NCBI RefSeq assembly: GCF_044324785.1
Contig: NZ_CP172127.1
Origin: Escherichia coli
Lineage (GTDB): Bacteria > Pseudomonadota > Gammaproteobacteria > Enterobacterales > Enterobacteriaceae
DNA: 64,000 bases
Strand: one strand, 5' to 3'
Below, piece after piece: positions 35,380 through 46,558 of the stretch; the first letter of the stretch is position 1, and every line of letters begins with the position of its first letter. The notes beneath the pieces were generated by a model. That model was not told the origin of the DNA. It saw only the letters and a program-made list of their open reading frames with translations, and searched no databases. A program made the translations under genes and the position numbers.

Positions 35380-36777
35380 ATTTTTACCCGAGTCGCTAAT
35401 TTTTGCCGCAAGGTGCTAAGCCGCGAGGAAAGCGAGGCTGAACAGGCAGTCGCCCGTCCACAGGTGACGGTGATCCCGCGTGAGCAGCATGCTATTTCCC
35501 GCAAAGATATCAGTGAAAATGCCCTGAAGGTAATGTACAGGCTCAATAAAGCGGGATACGAAGCCTGGCTGGTTGGCGGCGGCGTGCGCGACCTGTTACT
35601 TGGCAAAAAGCCAAAAGATTTTGACGTAACCACTAACGCCACGCCTGAGCAGGTACGTAAACTGTTCCGTAACTGCCGCCTGGTGGGTCGCCGTTTCCGT
35701 CTGGCTCATGTGATGTTTGGCCCGGAGATTATCGAAGTTGCGACCTTCCGTGGACACCACGAAGGTAACATCAGCGACCGCACGACCTCCCAACGCGGGC
35801 AAAACGGCATGTTGCTGCGCGACAACATTTTCGGCTCCATCGAAGAAGACGCCCAGCGCCGCGATTTCACTATCAACAGCCTGTATTACAGCGTGGCAGA
35901 TTTTACCGTCCGTGATTACGTTGGCGGCATGAAGGATCTGAAAGACGGCGTTATCCGTCTGATTGGTAACCCGGAAACGCGCTACCGTGAAGATCCGGTA
36001 CGGATGCTGCGCGCGGTACGTTTTGCCGCCAAATTGGGTATGCGTATCAGTCCTGAAACCGCAGAACCGATCCCTCGCCTGGCTACCCTGCTGAACGATA
36101 TCCCACCGGCACGCCTGTTTGAAGAATCTTTGAAACTGCTGCAAGCGGGCTACGGTTACGAAACCTATAAGCTGCTGTGTGAATATCATCTGTTCCAGCC
36201 GCTGTTCCCGACCATTACCCGCTACTTCACGGAAAATGGCGACAGCCCGATGGAGCGGATCATTGAACAGGTGCTGAAGAATACCGATACGCGTATCCAT
36301 AACGATATGCGCGTGAACCCGGCATTCCTGTTTGCCGCCATGTTCTGGTACCCACTGCTGGAGACGGCACAGAAGATCGCCCAGGAAAGCGGCCTGACCT
36401 ATCACGACGCTTTCGCGCTGGCGATGAACGACGTGCTGGACGAAGCCTGCCGTTCACTGGCAATCCCGAAACGTCTGACGACGTTAACCCGCGATATCTG
36501 GCAGTTGCAGTTGCGTATGTCCCGTCGTCAGGGTAAACGCGCATGGAAACTGCTGGAGCATCCTAAGTTCCGTGCGGCTTATGACCTGTTGGCCTTGCGA
36601 GCTGAAGTTGAACGTAACGCTGAATTGCAGCGTCTGGTGAAATGGTGGGGTGAGTTTCAGGTTTCCGCGCCACCAGATCAAAAAGGGATGCTTAACGAGT
36701 TGGATGAAGAGCCGTCACCGCGTCGCCGTACTCGTCGTCCACGCAAACGCGCACCGCGTCGTGAGGGTACCGCATGA
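35380..36777 (+). CDS. pcnB: poly(A) polymerase I, initiating at a non-canonical AUU codon
   Basis: ORF track opens at TTG 35359 ([15 protein letters not shown]...); the K-12 protein (465 aa) begins at the ATT at 35380-35382 ([13 protein letters not shown]...), the known non-canonical pcnB start; this position gives exactly 465 aa. Confidence 0.9.
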
Positions 36778-37253
36778 CAGTGGCGTATATTGCCATAGGC
36801 AGCAATCTGGCCTCTCCGCTGGAGCAGGTCAATGCTGCCCTGAAAGCATTAGGCGATATCCCTGAAAGCCACATTCTTGCCGTTTCTTCGTTTTACCGCA
36901 CTCCACCGCTGGGGCCGCAAGATCAACCTGACTACCTCAACGCCGCCGTGGCGCTTGAAACCTCCCTCGCCCCGGAAGAGTTACTCAACCATACACAGCG
37001 CATAGAGCTGCAACAGGGTCGTGTTCGTAAAGCGGAACGCTGGGGACCGCGTACGCTGGATCTCGACATCATGCTGTTTGGTAATGAAGTGATAAATACC
37101 GAACGTCTGACCGTTCCGCACTACGATATGAAAAATCGTGGCTTTATGTTGTGGCCGCTGTTTGAGATTGCGCCGGGACTGGTGTTTCCTGATGGAACAG
37201 TATTAGGAAATTTATTAAAAATAAATAAATTTCATGAATTAAACAAATGGTGA
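36774..37253 (+). CDS. folK: 2-amino-4-hydroxy-6-hydroxymethyldihydropteridine pyrophosphokinase (HPPK); C-terminus differs from the K-12 sequence as I recall it
   Basis: 159-aa [52 protein letters not shown]...; ATG overlaps the pcnB stop (ATGA); last 20 codons are very AT-rich. Confidence 0.93.
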
Positions 37254-37600
37254 TTTAATGATTTCATGAATATAAATAAATTCCGAAAAATAACCTTACC
37301 CATTGCAATTAATATATTCCCTAAGCTACAACCATAATTAATATTATATACCCCGCTAACACCTTCTACCTCACATACAATATTTCTTCCGCTTTGTACA
37401 TTAAGCTTTACTTAAAGATGAATTAAGTGGATATATAAATTTAAATATGCACAATATCCCACTTGGTGATGAACAGATGTTACATTCAGTAAATCTTCAC
37501 ATTCATCATTAACAAACCAATCTATTTTTCTCTATCGGGGTTCTTTGTCTGAAAGTACCCGATCGTAGTTAAACTCATGGAATATGATTCAAGGATTATT
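37254..37600 (+). promoter_or_regulatory. AT-rich upstream regulatory region of the fimbrial operon
   Basis: About 350 bp of strongly AT-rich sequence with direct repeats (ataaataaat and ttcatgaat each occur twice, 37221-37282), typical of H-NS-silenced chaperone-usher promoters; no specific promoter elements assigned. Confidence 0.4.
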
Positions 37601-38173
37601 ATGTCTAAAAAATTAGGTTTTGCCCTGTCTGGTCTAATGCTGGCAATGGTTGCAGGTACTGCTTCTGCTGATATGGACGGTGGTCAGATTAACATCAGTG
37701 GCTTGGTTAGCGATAACACCTGTGAAACAAAAGTTGATGGCGGCAAGCAAGATGGCCTGGTTCTTCTGCAAACTGCAACGGTTGCTGAAATTACCGCTGG
37801 TGTATCTGAAACTGCTGTCGGCGCCAAAGCGAAACCGTTTAGCATTACTGTAGACTGCAGCAAAGCGACTCCGGGAGGCCAACCGACTCTGACATTCGGT
37901 TCAGTCTTCTTTGGTAACAGTCGTGGCACTTTGAATAACGATATGTCCATCACCACCCCGTCATCTGGTGTGAATATCGCCCTGCACAACATTGACGGCA
38001 CCACGGTTAAACAAGTCAAAATTAATAATGCATCTGATGCTTACACTAAAGCATTAACCAATAATGTTGCAGTCTTTGACTTCAAAGCCTCCTATGTTCG
38101 TGAAGACAACTCAACACCAGCAACGGCTGGTTATGTAAGAACCAACACAGCTTACACCATCACCTACAATTAA
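37601..38173 (+). CDS. yadN: fimbrial major subunit (YadN-type pilin)
   Basis: ORF track 198 aa; start at ATG 37601 ([23 protein letters not shown], signal peptide) preceded by AAGGA; C-terminal beta-strand motif TAYTITYN. Confidence 0.85.
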
Positions 38174-38265
38174 GTTATTCGTTGGTGATTTAAATTACTA
38201 CAAGGGTGCGACACCTATTGTCGCCCCCTTGTCTTGAAAACAATTCATGTCATGGATGGTATATT

Positions 38266-38997
38266 TTGTTAAATAAAAAGAATATTGTCGCATTATGTGT
38301 TGTCAGTAGTATGGCATTTAGTATGCCTGTTATGGCCGATATTGTTATTTCCGGTACACGCGTCATTTATAAAAGTGATCAAAAAAGCGTTAGCGTACGC
38401 CTGGAGAATAAAGGCAATAGCCACCTGTTAGTACAAAGCTGGCTGGATACCGGTGACGATAACGCTGAGCCAGGAAGCATTAATGTACCATTTACGGCAA
38501 CACCTCCCGTTTCACGTATTGATGCTAAACGCGGTCAAACCATCAAATTGATGTATACCGGCAGTACCGTACTCCCCAGCGATAAAGAAAGCGTATTCTG
38601 GTTTAACGTGCTGGAAGTGCCCCCAAAACCAGATGCTACAAAAGTGGAGAATCAGAGCCTGTTACAACTGGCTTTCCGTACCCGTATCAAGCTGTTCTAT
38701 CGTCCGGCAGGATTAAACGGTAACCCGTCTGAAGCACCATTAGCCCTGAAATGGAAATGGGCTGAAGGGAAGTCTGGCCTGAGTGTATATAACCCAACAC
38801 CTTATTACGTCTCTTTCAACAGCGCAGAGTTAATCGCTGGCGGTAAGTCGAACCCGCTCAACGTAAAAATGATTGCACCGAAAAGCGAAGAGATTTTCAC
38901 CATAAGCGGTTCAGGCGGGAAAGCAACGTCAGGAAAGGTACATTTCTCAGCGATCAATGATTTTGGCGGCGCAATTGAAGGCGATGTCAATTTGTAA
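38266..38997 (+). CDS. yadV: periplasmic fimbrial chaperone (PapD-like, EcpD/YadV-type)
   Basis: ORF track starts at GTG 38206; a TTG at 38266 gives LLNKKNIVALCVVSSMAFSMPVMA signal followed by DIVISGTRVIYKSDQKSVSVRLENKG (PapD-like pilus chaperone N-domain); exact start uncertain. Confidence 0.8.
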   Translation: MLNKKNIVALCVVSSMAFSMPVMADIVISGTRVIYKSDQKSVSVRLENKGNSHLLVQSWLDTGDDNAEPGSINVPFTATPPVSRIDAKRGQTIKLMYTGSTVLPSDKESVFWFNVLEVPPKPDATKVENQSLLQLAFRTRIKLFYRPAGLNGNPSEAPLALKWKWAEGKSGLSVYNPTPYYVSFNSAELIAGGKSNPLNVKMIAPKSEEIFTISGSGGKATSGKVHFSAINDFGGAIEGDVNL

Positions 38998-39031
38998 GAC
39001 CAGGGACCTTATGCAGCAGGAAGCCAATGTA

Positions 39032-41632
39032 ATGAAAACAACGACATCGACTAAACGCCATAATCTTACGCGTATCGCAATGTATTGCTCAATTATGTAT
39101 AGCGGCGCTACCATCGGAGCCGAAAGCGTTGAGTATGACCCTACCTTTTTAATGGGTGGCAACGCTTCCAGTATTGATGTTAGCCGCTATAGCGATGGCA
39201 ACCCGACTTTGCCTGGTGTTTACGATGTTAGCATCTATGTTAACGAGCAACCTGTTGCTAACCTGGAGATCCCCTTTATCGCGATCCCCGAAAAAAAGAA
39301 TGCTCAAGCCTGTATTACCCTGAAAAATCTACTACAACTTCATATCAAGCCCCCCCCGGCAGACGAGGAAAATACTATCCTTCTTCCACGGGATGAAACG
39401 CTTGGCAACTGTCTTGACCTGTCGTTAGCCATACCTAAATCCTCAGTGAGCTATGACCCCTCTGAACAACGTCTGGATATCAATGTTCCCCAGGCGTGGG
39501 TGATGAAGAATTATCAAAACTATGTGGACCCATCACTTTGGGAAAATGGCATTAACGCGGCTACGCTGTCTTATAACATCAACGCTTATCGCAGTGAAAA
39601 TTCAAATTATACAAATGATAGCGTTTATACATCGTTCAATGGTGGCGTCAATTTAGGTGCCTGGCGTCTGCGTAGCAGCGGTAACTATAGCTGGAGAAAC
39701 GACGCGGGAAGCAATGTTGAGTTTATGAATCGCTACGTCCAGCGCGACATTACCGCTATTCGCTCGCAGCTCATTATGGGGGAATCCTACACCACAGGTG
39801 AAACGTTCGATTCCGTTAGTATCCGCGGCATTCGCTTATACAGCGATAGCCGAATGCTGCCGCCAGTATTGGCAAACTTCGCCCCAACAATTCGTGGTGT
39901 AGCGAATACCAACGCCAAAGTCAGCATTACCCAGGGTGGATACAAAATTTATGAAACCACTGTTCCACCGGGACCTTTTGTCATTGATGATCTCAGTCCG
40001 TCAGGGTATGGCAGCGATCTTATCGTAACCATTGAAGAAGCTGATGGCAGCAAGCGTACATTTTCTCAGCCATTTTCTTCAGTAATTCAAATGCTGCGCC
40101 CGGGTGTTTCTCGCTGGGATATCAGCGGCGGGCAAATTAATAAAGACGACTTGCATCATGAACCAAACTTACTACAAGCGACCTATTACCGTGGTTTAAG
40201 TAACCTGTTCACTGGCTATACTGGTTTTCAGGTCACAGATAATCATTATGCTGCAGGCTTACTTGGCATTGGGATGAATACTTCTGTCGGCGCAATTTCC
40301 TTCGATGTCACCCACTCCAGTGTCGATATACCGGATGATAAAAGGTACCAGGGGCAAAGCTATCGCATCTCCTGGAACAAATTTTTTGACCTGACAGATA
40401 CATCATTAAACATCGCGGCTTACCGCTACTCCACGCAGGACTATCTGGGCCTGAATGATGCATTAACACTTATTGATGAAGTTGAACATCCCACTCAGGA
40501 TCTTGATCCCAAAACTATGCGCAACTACGGGCGCATGAAAAACCAGTTCACCGTAAGCATTAACCAACCGCTACGCTTTGGGAAGGATGATTATGGCTCG
40601 TTCTATACCTCTGGAAGCTGGTCTGATTACTGGGGGGGCGGTAAGAGCCGTAGCAACTATTCGGTCGGCTACAGTAACAGCGCTTCATGGGGAAGCTACA
40701 GTATCAGCGCTCAACGATCCTGGGATGAGTACAGCCAAACAGAAAACAGTATTTACCTCAGCTTTTCGATACCTATCGAAAAACTGATGGGTACGGAGCA
40801 CCGTGATTCCGGTTTCCAAAGTATTGATACACAACTTAGTACCAATATGGATGGTAATAATCAGTTCAACATGAGCAGTAGCGGTTATAGCAACGATAAT
40901 CGCGTGAGCTATAGCGTGAACGCGGGTTATGGGATGAATAAAACCGGCAAAGATCTCAGCAACATCGGGGGTTATGCCAGCTATGAATCGCCATGGGGAA
41001 CGCTAGCTGGGTCAGTCTCTGCTACCAGCGATAATAACCGCCAGTACTCCGTTAATACAGATGGTGGATTTGTGTTGCACAGCGGAGGACTTACGTTCAG
41101 CAACGACAGTTTCAGTGATAATGACACCATTGCTCTGGTTAAAGCACCGGGTGCAAAAGGGGCGCGTATTAACTACGGCAACAATACCGTTGACCGTTGG
41201 GGATATGGCGTAACCAGTGCTCTTTCACCATACCAGGAAAACAAAATTGCTCTGGACACTGAAAACCTGGAAAACGACATCGAAATGAAGAGCACCAGTA
41301 CAGTTGCCGTACCACGCCAGGGCTCGGTTATCTTTGCTGGTTTTGAAACCAATCAGGGACAATCTGCGATTATGAATATCAAACGCAGTGACGGAAAAGG
41401 TATCCCCTTCGCCGCCGATATTCATGATGAAACAAATGCAATCATTGGCAACGTTGGGCAGGGCGGGCAGGCATTTGTTCGCGGTATTCAGCAGCAGGGC
41501 ACGATAAAAATCACCTGGCTGGAAGCCAGCATGCCCAAAACCTGTATTGCGCAGTACCAGCAACCCAATGTGACATCGGAGAAAATCCAGCAAACGATTA
41601 TTCTCAATAATATTCTTTGCCAGCTCCAATAA
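39032..41632 (+). CDS. htrE: outer-membrane fimbrial usher (HtrE/YadU-type)
   Basis: ORF track 891 aa from 38957; start at ATG 39032 (MKTTTSTKRHNLTRIAMYCSIMYSGATIGAESVEYDPTFLMG) follows the chaperone stop and has AGGAAG upstream; 866 aa. Confidence 0.88.
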   Translation: MKTTTSTKRHNLTRIAMYCSIMYSGATIGAESVEYDPTFLMGGNASSIDVSRYSDGNPTLPGVYDVSIYVNEQPVANLEIPFIAIPEKKNAQACITLKNLLQLHIKPPPADEENTILLPRDETLGNCLDLSLAIPKSSVSYDPSEQRLDINVPQAWVMKNYQNYVDPSLWENGINAATLSYNINAYRSENSNYTNDSVYTSFNGGVNLGAWRLRSSGNYSWRNDAGSNVEFMNRYVQRDITAIRSQLIMGESYTTGETFDSVSIRGIRLYSDSRMLPPVLANFAPTIRGVANTNAKVSITQGGYKIYETTVPPGPFVIDDLSPSGYGSDLIVTIEEADGSKRTFSQPFSSVIQMLRPGVSRWDISGGQINKDDLHHEPNLLQATYYRGLSNLFTGYTGFQVTDNHYAAGLLGIGMNTSVGAISFDVTHSSVDIPDDKRYQGQSYRISWNKFFDLTDTSLNIAAYRYSTQDYLGLNDALTLIDEVEHPTQDLDPKTMRNYGRMKNQFTVSINQPLRFGKDDYGSFYTSGSWSDYWGGGKSRSNYSVGYSNSASWGSYSISAQRSWDEYSQTENSIYLSFSIPIEKLMGTEHRDSGFQSIDTQLSTNMDGNNQFNMSSSGYSNDNRVSYSVNAGYGMNKTGKDLSNIGGYASYESPWGTLAGSVSATSDNNRQYSVNTDGGFVLHSGGLTFSNDSFSDNDTIALVKAPGAKGARINYGNNTVDRWGYGVTSALSPYQENKIALDTENLENDIEMKSTSTVAVPRQGSVIFAGFETNQGQSAIMNIKRSDGKGIPFAADIHDETNAIIGNVGQGGQAFVRGIQQQGTIKITWLEASMPKTCIAQYQQPNVTSEKIQQTIILNNILCQLQ

Positions 41633-41644
41633 TACGAAAGAGAG

Positions 41645-42211
41645 ATGACAATGATAAAAAACTCACGGTATAAAATAGTACTCCTGACAGGCATTTTTTT
41701 ACTGCCCGGCGCACTGGCACAAGATATTAATGTTGATTTTGTTGCCACAATCAAAGGCACGACATGTAATATCACTCTGGAAGGGACACGCGTCACCGCT
41801 GATGGAAATAATCAGTACACGCTACGGATATTAAATGTTGCTCTGGATAAAATCATAAACAAGATGCCAGAAGCACAAGCCGACTTTAAACTGGTCGCTA
41901 ATTGTGATGGTAACATAGGCAAGATTACGACATCGCTGGCAGGGAATCCTTCAGGAGAGTTACCCTATTTAATTTCTCCATTAACTTCAGATAATTCATC
42001 CACCACAGAATATATTGCTATGGGGATTAAACTTCGAAATACCTCTGACACTGAATTTATTCCCCCAGATGGTTCTAAAAAGATTTCCTGGGGAGAGGGA
42101 TTAACAAAACCGGAACTTGAGATGACGGTAGCACTTCGCGAAACCCGACCAGGTTCAGGAAGAGCAGGTAGTTTTAAAGCACTTGCGACATTCAATTTCA
42201 CCTATGAATAA
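41645..42211 (+). CDS. fimbrial minor subunit (YadM-like)
   Basis: 188-aa ORF MTMIKNSRYKIVLLTGIFLLPGALAQD...; signal peptide and pilin C-terminus ATFNFTYE; the start may instead be ATG 41651. Confidence 0.8.
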   Translation: MTMIKNSRYKIVLLTGIFLLPGALAQDINVDFVATIKGTTCNITLEGTRVTADGNNQYTLRILNVALDKIINKMPEAQADFKLVANCDGNIGKITTSLAGNPSGELPYLISPLTSDNSSTTEYIAMGIKLRNTSDTEFIPPDGSKKISWGEGLTKPELEMTVALRETRPGSGRAGSFKALATFNFTYE

Positions 42212-42224
42212 AAGGATAATAATA

Positions 42225-42824
42225 ATGCAGATGAAATCATTACATTATGGGATATTTGCAAGCATTACTCTGAGCTTATTATTATTCAGCACGTTTTCTA
42301 TAGCCATCACTGATAACATTGGCCTAAACGTTATGACCATTGTTGAAAACAGAACTTGTCAAAGCGAAATCAACAACCAGGGGTTGGTTAATCTTGGCAC
42401 TGTTGGAGTGGGATATTTTGCCAGTAATGTTAGTGCGGAAGATAATTATCCAGGCGGAAAAACCTTTACTGTGACAGTAAAAGATTGCCCCTCCGCTGGC
42501 ACAACATCAAGTCAGTTGCATATAGAATTTAAACCTGTCAGTGGTGTAATGGCCACTGGTAGCCAACAGATATTCGCCAATAATCATGTCGGCGGCGCAC
42601 AAAATGTAGGAATCGTTATTTTTAGCCAAAATAATCAGTCATCGGATACAGTGAATGTGCTGTCACCAACAGGGCAGTTTCGCACGGTCTGGCCTGTTGT
42701 CTCTGCGAATATGAATAATTCATCGTGGCAATTTTATACACGAATGCAGAAAATAGATCCGTTACTCCCGGTTGGTGCAGGATTTGTTACCAGTAACGTA
42801 TTAGTTGATATTTATTATCAATAA
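42225..42824 (+). CDS. fimbrial minor subunit (YadL/YadK-like)
   Basis: ORF track from 42183; start at ATG 42225 (MQMKSLHYGIFASITLSLLLFSTFSIA) preceded by AAAGGA; 199 aa. Confidence 0.78.
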   Translation: MQMKSLHYGIFASITLSLLLFSTFSIAITDNIGLNVMTIVENRTCQSEINNQGLVNLGTVGVGYFASNVSAEDNYPGGKTFTVTVKDCPSAGTTSSQLHIEFKPVSGVMATGSQQIFANNHVGGAQNVGIVIFSQNNQSSDTVNVLSPTGQFRTVWPVVSANMNNSSWQFYTRMQKIDPLLPVGAGFVTSNVLVDIYYQ

Positions 42825-42877
42825 TTATGCTAAGCATAATGCTTCTACAAATATTATTTTTTCAAAGGAGTGATAAG

Positions 42878-44128
42878 ATGAAGTCAGCGTTCCGATACTT
42901 TATTTTTTTATGGATTATCACAGCCAGCATTAATAATGTAAATGCTGGAAGTCTTACTTTTATGGTCGGTAACGATGCTGGCATAGGAAACACGCACGGC
43001 CCAACAGGCGATAAACTAATATCATTTGCCTATCCGGTTGGTGGAGTAAACAATATTGTATTTTATGATCCAACATCAGACACACCGACCGATGCAAAAA
43101 TAAAATTATATTGGAGTGAACTGGACACATCAAGTAGCGGTGGGACTGTATATTGTACTTCAAAAGATAATTCCAGCGGTGTGCCAATTACTGTCCGGCA
43201 TCAGATGGTTTACTCAGGAAAAATGGCAGATGGGCACAAATTATATGAAACCAATGTTACCGGTCTATATTATACGTTAATGCTCAATAAATTCTGGTCG
43301 TATGAACTTCTCTCAAGCTCTCCAGATATGTACGTTGGAGACGACGGCTGGCACACTGTACAATTTTATATTACGGGTAATTATATGCGAGGTCAATGTA
43401 ATACTAAAAATATACAAGCCGTCGGGGGCCTTGCTCACGATGCTACAGTGAAATTCTATACCGACAGAACTTTTAACCCTGCTCCAAATACTAACGTGCA
43501 ATTAAAACACACTGGTGATTATTTGTATTCATTCGAAAATGAAGGACCAGGGAATCCAAATGTAAAGTATTCTAAGAAACTATTCGTAGATTTTAAATTA
43601 ACAGACATCAAAATCCAACTGCCAACATGCTTTACGTCTATCCTTTTGGGTGAGAGCGTAACGCGATCAACCGTAAATCTCGGGGAATATACTGTTGGAC
43701 AGATCACCTCAGATTCTGCAACACCTGTTAATTTTCAGATTTCGCTACAAAATTGTGTTCGAATAAGTAGTATTAAAACAAAACTAAAATCTAATGTAGT
43801 AGGAGTGAATAATCCTCTGTTGCTTGGTAATACTTTGACAGGAACCGATGATGCAAAAGGTGCCGGAGTACTTATTGAAGGGTTACCCAATAGCAAAAAT
43901 TCACAAAATTTCACGCTTAAGCCAAATGATGAGACGTCAAGCTATAACGATGCTGAAGATGATCCTGGAGAAAACAATGGAATTTATAACCCAGATTATC
44001 CTAATGCCAACGGTCGTACTACAACCCAGGACCTGAAATTTCAGGCAACATTAAAACGCGATGGTAATGCAACTGTGAAACCCGGCGGATTTAAGGCTAC
44101 CAGTACATTCCAGGTCACCTACGAGTAA
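42878..44128 (+). CDS. yadC: fimbrial tip adhesin-like subunit (YadC-like)
   Basis: ORF track 433 aa from 42827; start at ATG 42878 (MKSAFRYFIFLWIITASINNVNA) preceded by AAGGAG; 416 aa with pilin-like C-terminus STFQVTYE. Confidence 0.8.
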   Translation: MKSAFRYFIFLWIITASINNVNAGSLTFMVGNDAGIGNTHGPTGDKLISFAYPVGGVNNIVFYDPTSDTPTDAKIKLYWSELDTSSSGGTVYCTSKDNSSGVPITVRHQMVYSGKMADGHKLYETNVTGLYYTLMLNKFWSYELLSSSPDMYVGDDGWHTVQFYITGNYMRGQCNTKNIQAVGGLAHDATVKFYTDRTFNPAPNTNVQLKHTGDYLYSFENEGPGNPNVKYSKKLFVDFKLTDIKIQLPTCFTSILLGESVTRSTVNLGEYTVGQITSDSATPVNFQISLQNCVRISSIKTKLKSNVVGVNNPLLLGNTLTGTDDAKGAGVLIEGLPNSKNSQNFTLKPNDETSSYNDAEDDPGENNGIYNPDYPNANGRTTTQDLKFQATLKRDGNATVKPGGFKATSTFQVTYE

Positions 44129-46318: not shown

Positions 46319-46558
46319 TTAGTTAATCAGTTTATCAATCTCAGCAAGAGGTAAATTTGCCATCTCTGCAACGTCTTCCCGAGACATTCCTTTACTCAGA
46401 AGACGCTGGGCGAATTCCTGACTTACTTCCTGTGTTACTTCCTGTATTACCTCTTGTCTTACCTCTTGTCTTACCTCCTGTCTTCCTTCCTGTCTTCCTT
46501 CCTGTCTTCCTTCCTGTCTTCCCCTCTCTTCAAACCACTGCGCCAGCGTCATCATAGA
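46319..46558 (-). CDS. putative intragenic small ORF in frame with the rpnC C-terminus (RpnS-type candidate antitoxin)
   Basis: In-frame ATG-ATG at 46553-46558 (MMTLAQWFEERGRQEG...KLIN, 79 aa) preceded on the minus strand by acGGGAGGGGAGtct, a strong Shine-Dalgarno 3 nt upstream, inside the rpnC coding sequence. Confidence 0.45.
   Translation of the reverse strand, partial: SMMTLAQWFEERGRQEGRQEGRQEGRQEVRQEVRQEVIQEVTQEVSQEFAQRLLSKGMSREDVAEMANLPLAEIDKLIN

Follow-up and report, generated by a model that had tools for sequence, protein, structure and literature searches.

The folK-yadN control region of a diverged Yad fimbrial allele in Escherichia coli: composition, mosaic structure and candidate regulatory features

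The AT-rich DNA analyzed here is the folK-yadN intergenic control region of the Yad chaperone-usher fimbrial operon of Escherichia coli, present as a strongly diverged allele, one of several in the species. It lies within a stretch of 64,000 nt, referred to below as the window. The account that explains the whole best, and which we hold to be very likely, is that of a yad control region with a weak sigma-70 promoter silenced by H-NS, whose distal half would serve as a loading site for Rho. As such, it represents a further natural allele of a control region that is already known and brings little new biology; the modest additions to the published work are confined to the idea of a Rho-dependent terminator and to the modular recombination of the locus. 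The repeat and the A-tracts that had drawn attention to this DNA are real, albeit of little functional weight.

Yad fimbriae function in adhesion and biofilm formation, and a 2026 study adds a contribution to bloodstream infection (PMC13245861). The control region is the place where their silencing by H-NS gets lifted. Its alleles differ by up to 45–63% and recombine independently of the structural genes, so that the results obtained with K-12 or CFT073 may not transfer to every strain.

Locus identity and mosaic structure

The position of the yad operon followed from Pfam domains and from synteny with 118UI, N3, K-12 and Sakai, and what had initially been annotated as a fimbrial upstream regulatory region was thereby identified as the folK-yadN spacer. 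On its 5′ side, folK (HPPK; 36774–37253, plus strand) was recognized by PF01288 (E 8.5e-39), with the stop codon ending at 37253, and on its 3′ side the gene for a yadN-type major fimbrial subunit of 190 aa (37601–38173, plus strand) was recognized by PF00419 (E 2.8e-10) and shared 99% identity with its 118UI counterpart. The spacer between the two genes spans 37254–37600 (347 bp), with yadN starting at 37601, while the interval 37221–37600 of the initial annotation takes in the final 33 nt of folK. The remaining part of the operon (38206–44128, plus strand) encodes a chaperone, an usher, two minor subunits and an adhesin-like subunit of 433 aa (Pfam PapD_N/C, Usher, PapC_N/C and Fimbrial; synteny with 118UI). 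The operon has six genes, with folK as the 5′ neighbor, panB and then panC on the 3′ side, and dksA, gluQ and pcnB further upstream; the neighborhood comprises mrcB, hrpB, thpR, sfsA, dksA, gluQRS, pcnB, folK, the yad genes, panB and panC. In K-12, the order at the same position is folK, yadN-yadV-htrE-yadMLKC, panB.

The yadN start codon and its Shine-Dalgarno sequence AAGGA (37591–37603, plus strand) belong to a conserved block, and the same starts are annotated in 118UI, N3 and K-12. Another in-frame ATG is present eight codons 5′ of the annotated start, in the conserved ATGGAAT block (37577–37600), and in K-12 the same upstream ATG (equivalent to 37577) begins a mini-ORF of four codons instead. 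The small ORFs of 21–23 aa in the spacer had no support and were taken as chance, and an Rfam scan of 36700–38300 with E up to 1 gave no match. Directly after the yadN stop codon, a G+C-rich stem-loop was seen at 38200–38232, with a 13-bp stem containing one mismatch, lacking a U-run and having an MFE of −27.7 kcal/mol in its 89-nt context (z −3.6). It resembles the stem-loops located behind the major pilin genes of other chaperone-usher operons. In one contig scan, the conserved 23-mer at the 5′ end of yadN matched a single contig, which belonged to E. coli.

Seven alleles (the present one, 118UI, 360D-1, ST131, CFT073, K-12 and Sakai) were aligned. The intergenic identity of the present allele was 100% to N3, 97% to 118UI, 82–84% to ST131 over the full length and 55–57% to K-12 and CFT073, and a related allele was found in 1,074 of 5,426 genomes at a coverage of at least 80%. 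The sequence can be followed in K-12 and Sakai up to 37195, within folK, beyond which no similarity is seen until close to the 3′ terminus of the adhesin gene or until panB. The final approximately 19 codons of folK (37196–37253) are allele-specific and AT-rich: FolK ends with 19 allele-specific residues in the window and with ...GEMLRQILHTRAFDKLNKW in K-12, and CFT073 and O157 Sakai have yet other C-termini. The exchange of fimbrial alleles thus extends into the essential gene folK.

The relation to N3 and 118UI shows the mosaic nature of the locus. The backbone was 99–100% identical to N3 up to approximately 37635 (100% over 37196–37601), with zero mismatches within 36700–37635, and from 37637 onward the sequence matched 118UI at approximately 99%. 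The last mismatch distinguishing it from 118UI is at 37586 and the first mismatch specific to N3 is at 37658, which places the crossover in the interval 37587–37657, N3-identical on its left and of 118UI type on its right. This interval consists of the ribosome-binding site and the signal-peptide codons, which are nearly invariant among the alleles. N3 itself, deposited as NZ_CP031609.1, has a different yad cassette of seven genes. As judged from these alignments, the locus is a recombinant in which an N3-type control region has been joined to structural genes of 118UI type, and such a breakpoint implies that the control region and the structural genes are exchanged as separate modules. The folK gene of 118UI had 30 differences from the window within 250 bp (36929–37178), far above the level in the flanking genes, which suggests a further recombination patch within folK. 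The adhesin-like gene was also more divergent at 42600–43500, where its identity to 118UI drops to 82–94% from the approximately 99% seen in the other parts of the operon, in line with published reports of a variable YadC lectin domain.

Base composition, H-NS silencing and the candidate promoter

The claim that about 350 bp in front of the pilin gene are strongly AT-rich and carry repeated A/T tracts proved correct. The G+C content of 37221–37600 is 0.289 compared to 0.511 in the whole window, and only 0.08% of the 380-bp segments are as low; the minimum for a segment of this size in the 64 kb is 0.284, at 37201–37580. The AT-rich DNA starts at approximately 37196, inside the 3′ end of folK, so that the tract 37196–37600, with the lowest G+C content of the window (about 29%), comprises the folK tail together with the 347-bp spacer, and it is this tract that we infer to be the target of H-NS silencing. 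It contains 49 TpA steps and 19 AnTm tracts in 405 bp, compared to 7.1 ± 3.3 across the window (top 0.55%), 11 of the 19 being located in 37208–37291. The H-NS motif TCGATAAATT was matched at 8 of 10 positions at four sites (37209, 37222, 37273 and 37432; span 37209–37441), compared to 1.38 ± 1.22 in shuffles, so that the excess over what the base composition gives is not significant (p 0.06).

An A-tract curvature signal, which had been proposed as a check of H-NS silencing, was absent: AA/TT periodicity had no power at 10–11 bp (p 0.43–0.81), showing that the tracts are not in helical phase, and a wedge model predicted an average bend of 5.0 degrees per turn, compared to 5.9 for the window as a whole, with 87% of segments equal or higher, the absolute values being approximate. 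Recruitment of H-NS mainly through the intrinsic curvature of phased A-tracts, as the initial annotation implied, is therefore improbable for this region, despite an A-tract density that is among the highest of the window; the sole strong bend predicted by this approximate model is centered at about 37613, already inside yadN. That bend, the fifth highest of the window, is formed by A6...T4 in ATGTCTAAAAAATTAGGTTTTGC and falls in the most conserved part of yadN (37601–37630). The lack of curvature is, however, a poor test for refuting silencing by H-NS, because AT-richness by itself is accepted as sufficient for H-NS binding.

The evidence for silencing comes from orthologous alleles. In K-12, the folK-yadN spacer is listed as the H-NS-associated 'promoter island' 156927_379 (Panyukov & Ozoline; PMC3661553), and H-NS occupies yadN according to three ChIP data sets, while SlyA over-expression increased yadN 2.4-fold (PMC5797941). 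In CFT073, for which H-NS ChIP is also available, a lux fusion carrying approximately 200 bp of the DNA in front of yadN rose more than 100-fold in an hns mutant, which was complemented, and in EC958/ST131 yad was up in an hns mutant at both the transcript (qRT-PCR) and the protein level (PMC13245861). The same study of ExPEC EC958/ST131 and CFT073 demonstrated experimentally the induction of yad by serum (Ellison et al., 2026; PMC13245861), and it cites Larsonneur et al. (2016) for the involvement of ArcA and temperature in yad regulation in K-12. Silencing by H-NS, which the initial annotation read from the sequence pattern, has thus been published for the orthologous alleles of K-12, CFT073 and EC958/ST131, and for the present allele it follows from orthology as a strong inference rather than a demonstration, since the identity is 82–84% to ST131 and only 55–57% to K-12 and CFT073, these two being the source of the reporter and ChIP evidence.

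A promoter search in the spacer produced weak candidates. A simple consensus scan gave 2 promoter-like sites compared to 4.5 in shuffles, and the PWM candidates were weak as well. Among them is a putative sigma-70 promoter at 37428–37455 (plus strand) consisting of a −35 element TGGATA, a 16-nt spacer and a −10 element CACAAT, with a score of 5.5 bits and a position shared among alleles. CACAAT (37450–37455) was the sole −10 candidate present in the top lists of all six non-O157 alleles, and in each of the four alleles for which the distance was taken (the present one, ST131, CFT073 and K-12) it precedes the ATG by 151–156 nt, falling inside the approximately 200-bp fragment of the CFT073 reporter. 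The weakness of the candidate fits a cryptic operon. A palindrome, ACTTAA-N7-TTAAGT (37410–37428), seen in the sequence adjoining the −35 element, is a candidate regulator site, and ACTTAA...TGAATTAAGT is preserved in K-12 despite an intergenic identity of 55%. The conserved blocks bear a weak likeness to the consensus sequences of ArcA, OmpR and RcsB (for example, TGTTACATTCAGTAAA at 37478) and are regarded as leads only.

According to the mechanism proposed here, H-NS bound to the DNA of 29% G+C that extends from the end of folK to the beginning of yadN would hold the weak sigma-70 promoter silent. This promoter would be located within the proximal 200 bp or so, with the candidate −35 element at 37428 and the −10 element at 37450. 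Expression would be achieved via counter-silencing by environmental cues rather than by a stochastic DNA switch, and the cues may be those published for other alleles, i.e., SlyA, ArcA/anaerobiosis, low temperature and serum.

The AT-rich DNA might instead be the mere edge of a recombining, horizontally exchanged fimbrial cassette, whose composition and repeats hitch-hike without any role beyond that of a basal promoter. The allelic divergence extending from inside folK to near panB, the chimeric structure made of N3-type and 118UI-type segments and the low G+C content throughout the yad operon are all in line with such a passive origin, but measurements on other alleles gave an H-NS-dependent effect exceeding 100-fold, and a G+C content of 0.26–0.32, the distal bias of C over G and several short blocks have been kept at an identity of 37–57%. 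Since these features persist across alleles so far diverged, they argue for constraint, and a merely passive cassette edge has little likelihood compared to a control region silenced by H-NS.

Direct repeats and the question of phase variation

The swapped direct repeat described in the initial annotation does exist: its units are ATAAATAAATT, present at 37221 and again at 37272, and TTTCATGAAT, present at 37230 and again at 37262, with the order reversed between the two copies. Copy 1 (ATAAATAAATT followed by TCATGAAT; 37221–37239, plus strand) lies within the coding sequence of folK and is not conserved in CFT073 and K-12, and copy 2 (TTTCATGAAT followed by ATAAATAAATT; 37262–37282, plus strand) holds the conserved core GAATATAAATA (37268–37278). 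Judged against 1000 dinucleotide shuffles, the longest direct repeat of 11 nt was unremarkable (p 0.105), and the numbers of repeated 8-mers (16 compared to 5.5 ± 3.2, p 0.005) and 10-mers (4 compared to 0.5, p 0.024) were modestly above expectation.

The core GAATATAAATA was invariant across five diverged alleles and kept in all alleles outside O157, which makes this 11-mer a candidate site. The TTTCATG part of copy 2 was found only in the allele shared by the window and 118UI, its counterpart being AGTG or CGTG in 360D-1, ST131 and CFT073 and TTGC in K-12. Two TTCATGAA palindromes 32 bp apart within the repeat could be read as a paired site for a dimeric regulator or as a nucleation pair for H-NS. 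The excess of repeated 8-mers and 10-mers, the perfect symmetry of TTCATGAA, the fit of ATAAATAAATT to the H-NS motif at 8 of 10 positions and the invariance of the core in copy 2 are compatible with this reading; however, copy 1 is part of the folK codons (KFHE) and under coding constraint, it is missing from K-12 and CFT073, the repeat being confined to the window/118UI allele, and yadN begins over 300 bp downstream of the whole arrangement, which places the latter beyond the approximately 200-bp CFT073 fragment that was sufficient for H-NS-dependent control. A paired site is for these reasons improbable. Because of its confinement to the window/118UI allele and the location of copy 1 in folK codons, the swapped repeat is unlikely to be functional as a unit and probably represents low-complexity sequence or a recent small change.

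The suggestion that the promoter is possibly phase-variable found no support, and tests for an invertible element, for Dam/Lrp control and for slipped-strand repeats all failed, in agreement with the statement that Yad fimbriae are not phase-variable (PMC13245861). Many fimbrial operons do vary in phase, and a switch in the form of a fimS-like invertible promoter, a pap-like Dam/Lrp element or a slipped-strand repeat could point to imperfect inverted repeats, the best of which pairs 21 nt at 37333 and 37429 with 81% complementarity, and to (AAAT)3 at 37219. But the longest exact inverted repeat of the control region, 10 nt, was reached by 72% of dinucleotide shuffles and is thus at the level of chance, and no recombinase gene was present among the neighboring genes (Pfam and synteny with annotated genomes), so that the initial observation of neither invertible-element repeats nor a recombinase was correct. 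No genes for PapI- or PapB-type regulators were found in or near the operon, and the only GATC site, at 37561, is not conserved, reading GATT in 118UI. There was no long simple repeat, the longest runs being A6 and T5, and (AAAT)3 occurs only inside the folK coding sequence.

A search for inverted copies across sequenced genomes was equally negative: in all 1,476 E. coli genomes with a match the region occupied a single place, with no piece on the opposite strand. The same kind of search with fimS as a positive control revealed inverted copies, e.g., in H84 (two pieces that together cover 61%, and one additional place), and approximately 311 of 4,773 genomes had no full-length match; this control was partly blurred by the paralogy of fimB and fimE (median of two places per genome), with the signature of the inverted switch still visible. 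Taken together with the published statement on Yad, this largely refutes the phase switch already, and we consider it extremely improbable.

The C-rich distal half and comparison with known systems

The distal half of the spacer has a peculiar composition. The stretch 37271–37390 (plus strand) contains 26.7% C and 3.3% G, the latter being the minimum for the window, and within 37313–37390 there are 24 C and 2 G (top 0.24%). The first 150 nt after folK had a C/G ratio of 2.2–4.4 in all seven alleles compared, with the identity down to 37–57%, and the RNA of 147 nt after folK is essentially unstructured (MFE −5.1 kcal/mol, z −0.02). Composition of the rut kind, i.e., C-rich, G-poor and unstructured over at least about 80 nt after the stop codon, is thus present, and a search of the folK-yadN spacer for intrinsic terminators was negative. 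In the literature examined, neither Term-seq nor bicyclomycin data pointed to termination behind folK. The strongest C-over-G stretch on the plus strand of the window is located elsewhere, at 46461–46538 downstream of panC, with 34 C and 5 G in 78 nt.

The stretch 37271–37390 is a candidate rut site for the pcnB-folK transcript, and possibly constitutes a Rho-dependent terminator, predicted from the sequence, which would insulate yad; the richness in C could also have another cause. Once transcribed behind pcnB-folK, the distal half would probably act as a Rho loading site, ending the pcnB-folK transcript and blocking its read-through into yad, and conservation of the rut-like composition suggests a role for Rho in the insulation or silencing of the operon. 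A broader proposal, which we put forward tentatively and at somewhat less than even chances, is that 37271–37390 is a conserved Rho-dependent terminator and insulator, which stops the essential pcnB-folK transcript and, jointly with H-NS, keeps read-through away from yad, and that cues weakening H-NS or Rho, such as serum and temperature, could contribute to switching yad on by way of read-through. Since strains exchange whole control regions separately from the structural genes, this regulation would differ from strain to strain.

Among the well-studied fimbrial switches, fimS is similar in its AT-richness, its length of a few hundred bp and its location before the major pilin gene of a chaperone-usher operon, and the regulation of fim is also influenced by H-NS. 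In contrast to fimS, the present region has no flanking inverted repeats above chance and no recombinase of the FimB/FimE type, and it was found in one orientation in 1,476 genomes. With pap it shares a long AT-rich regulatory region before the pilin gene. The pap switch needs two GATC sites approximately 100 bp apart together with PapI and PapB, while a single non-conserved GATC and no PapI/PapB genes are present here.

The distal half can be compared with the Rho-dependent terminators lambda tR1 and trp t′, which it resembles in having approximately 80–120 nt of C-rich, G-poor and unstructured sequence right after a stop codon with no intrinsic terminator. It differs from the classic rut sites in a moderate absolute C content of 27–31%, caused by the DNA being mostly A+T.

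The closest counterparts are the yad promoters themselves. Those of ExPEC EC958/ST131 and CFT073 are orthologous, with an identity of 82–84% for ST131 and only 57% for CFT073, whose allele was used in the lux reporter; the cut-off of 80% usher identity applied by Ellison et al. (2026; PMC13245861) may have left diverged yad operons uncounted. The K-12 yad promoter differs from the present one in an intergenic identity of 55%, in the −35 region, where the window has a 10-bp deletion relative to K-12, in the C-terminus of FolK and in an operon of seven genes instead of six. On the other hand, this cryptic, H-NS-repressed promoter occupies the same position between folK and yadN, with panB behind the operon, in a spacer of similar length (369 bp in K-12 and 347 bp in the window) and G+C content (0.27 and 0.30, respectively). 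Its distal half is likewise C-rich and G-poor, and the two alleles share the blocks GAATATAAATA, ACTTAA..TGAATTAAGT and GCACAATA as well as the ribosome-binding site and the signal-peptide codons.
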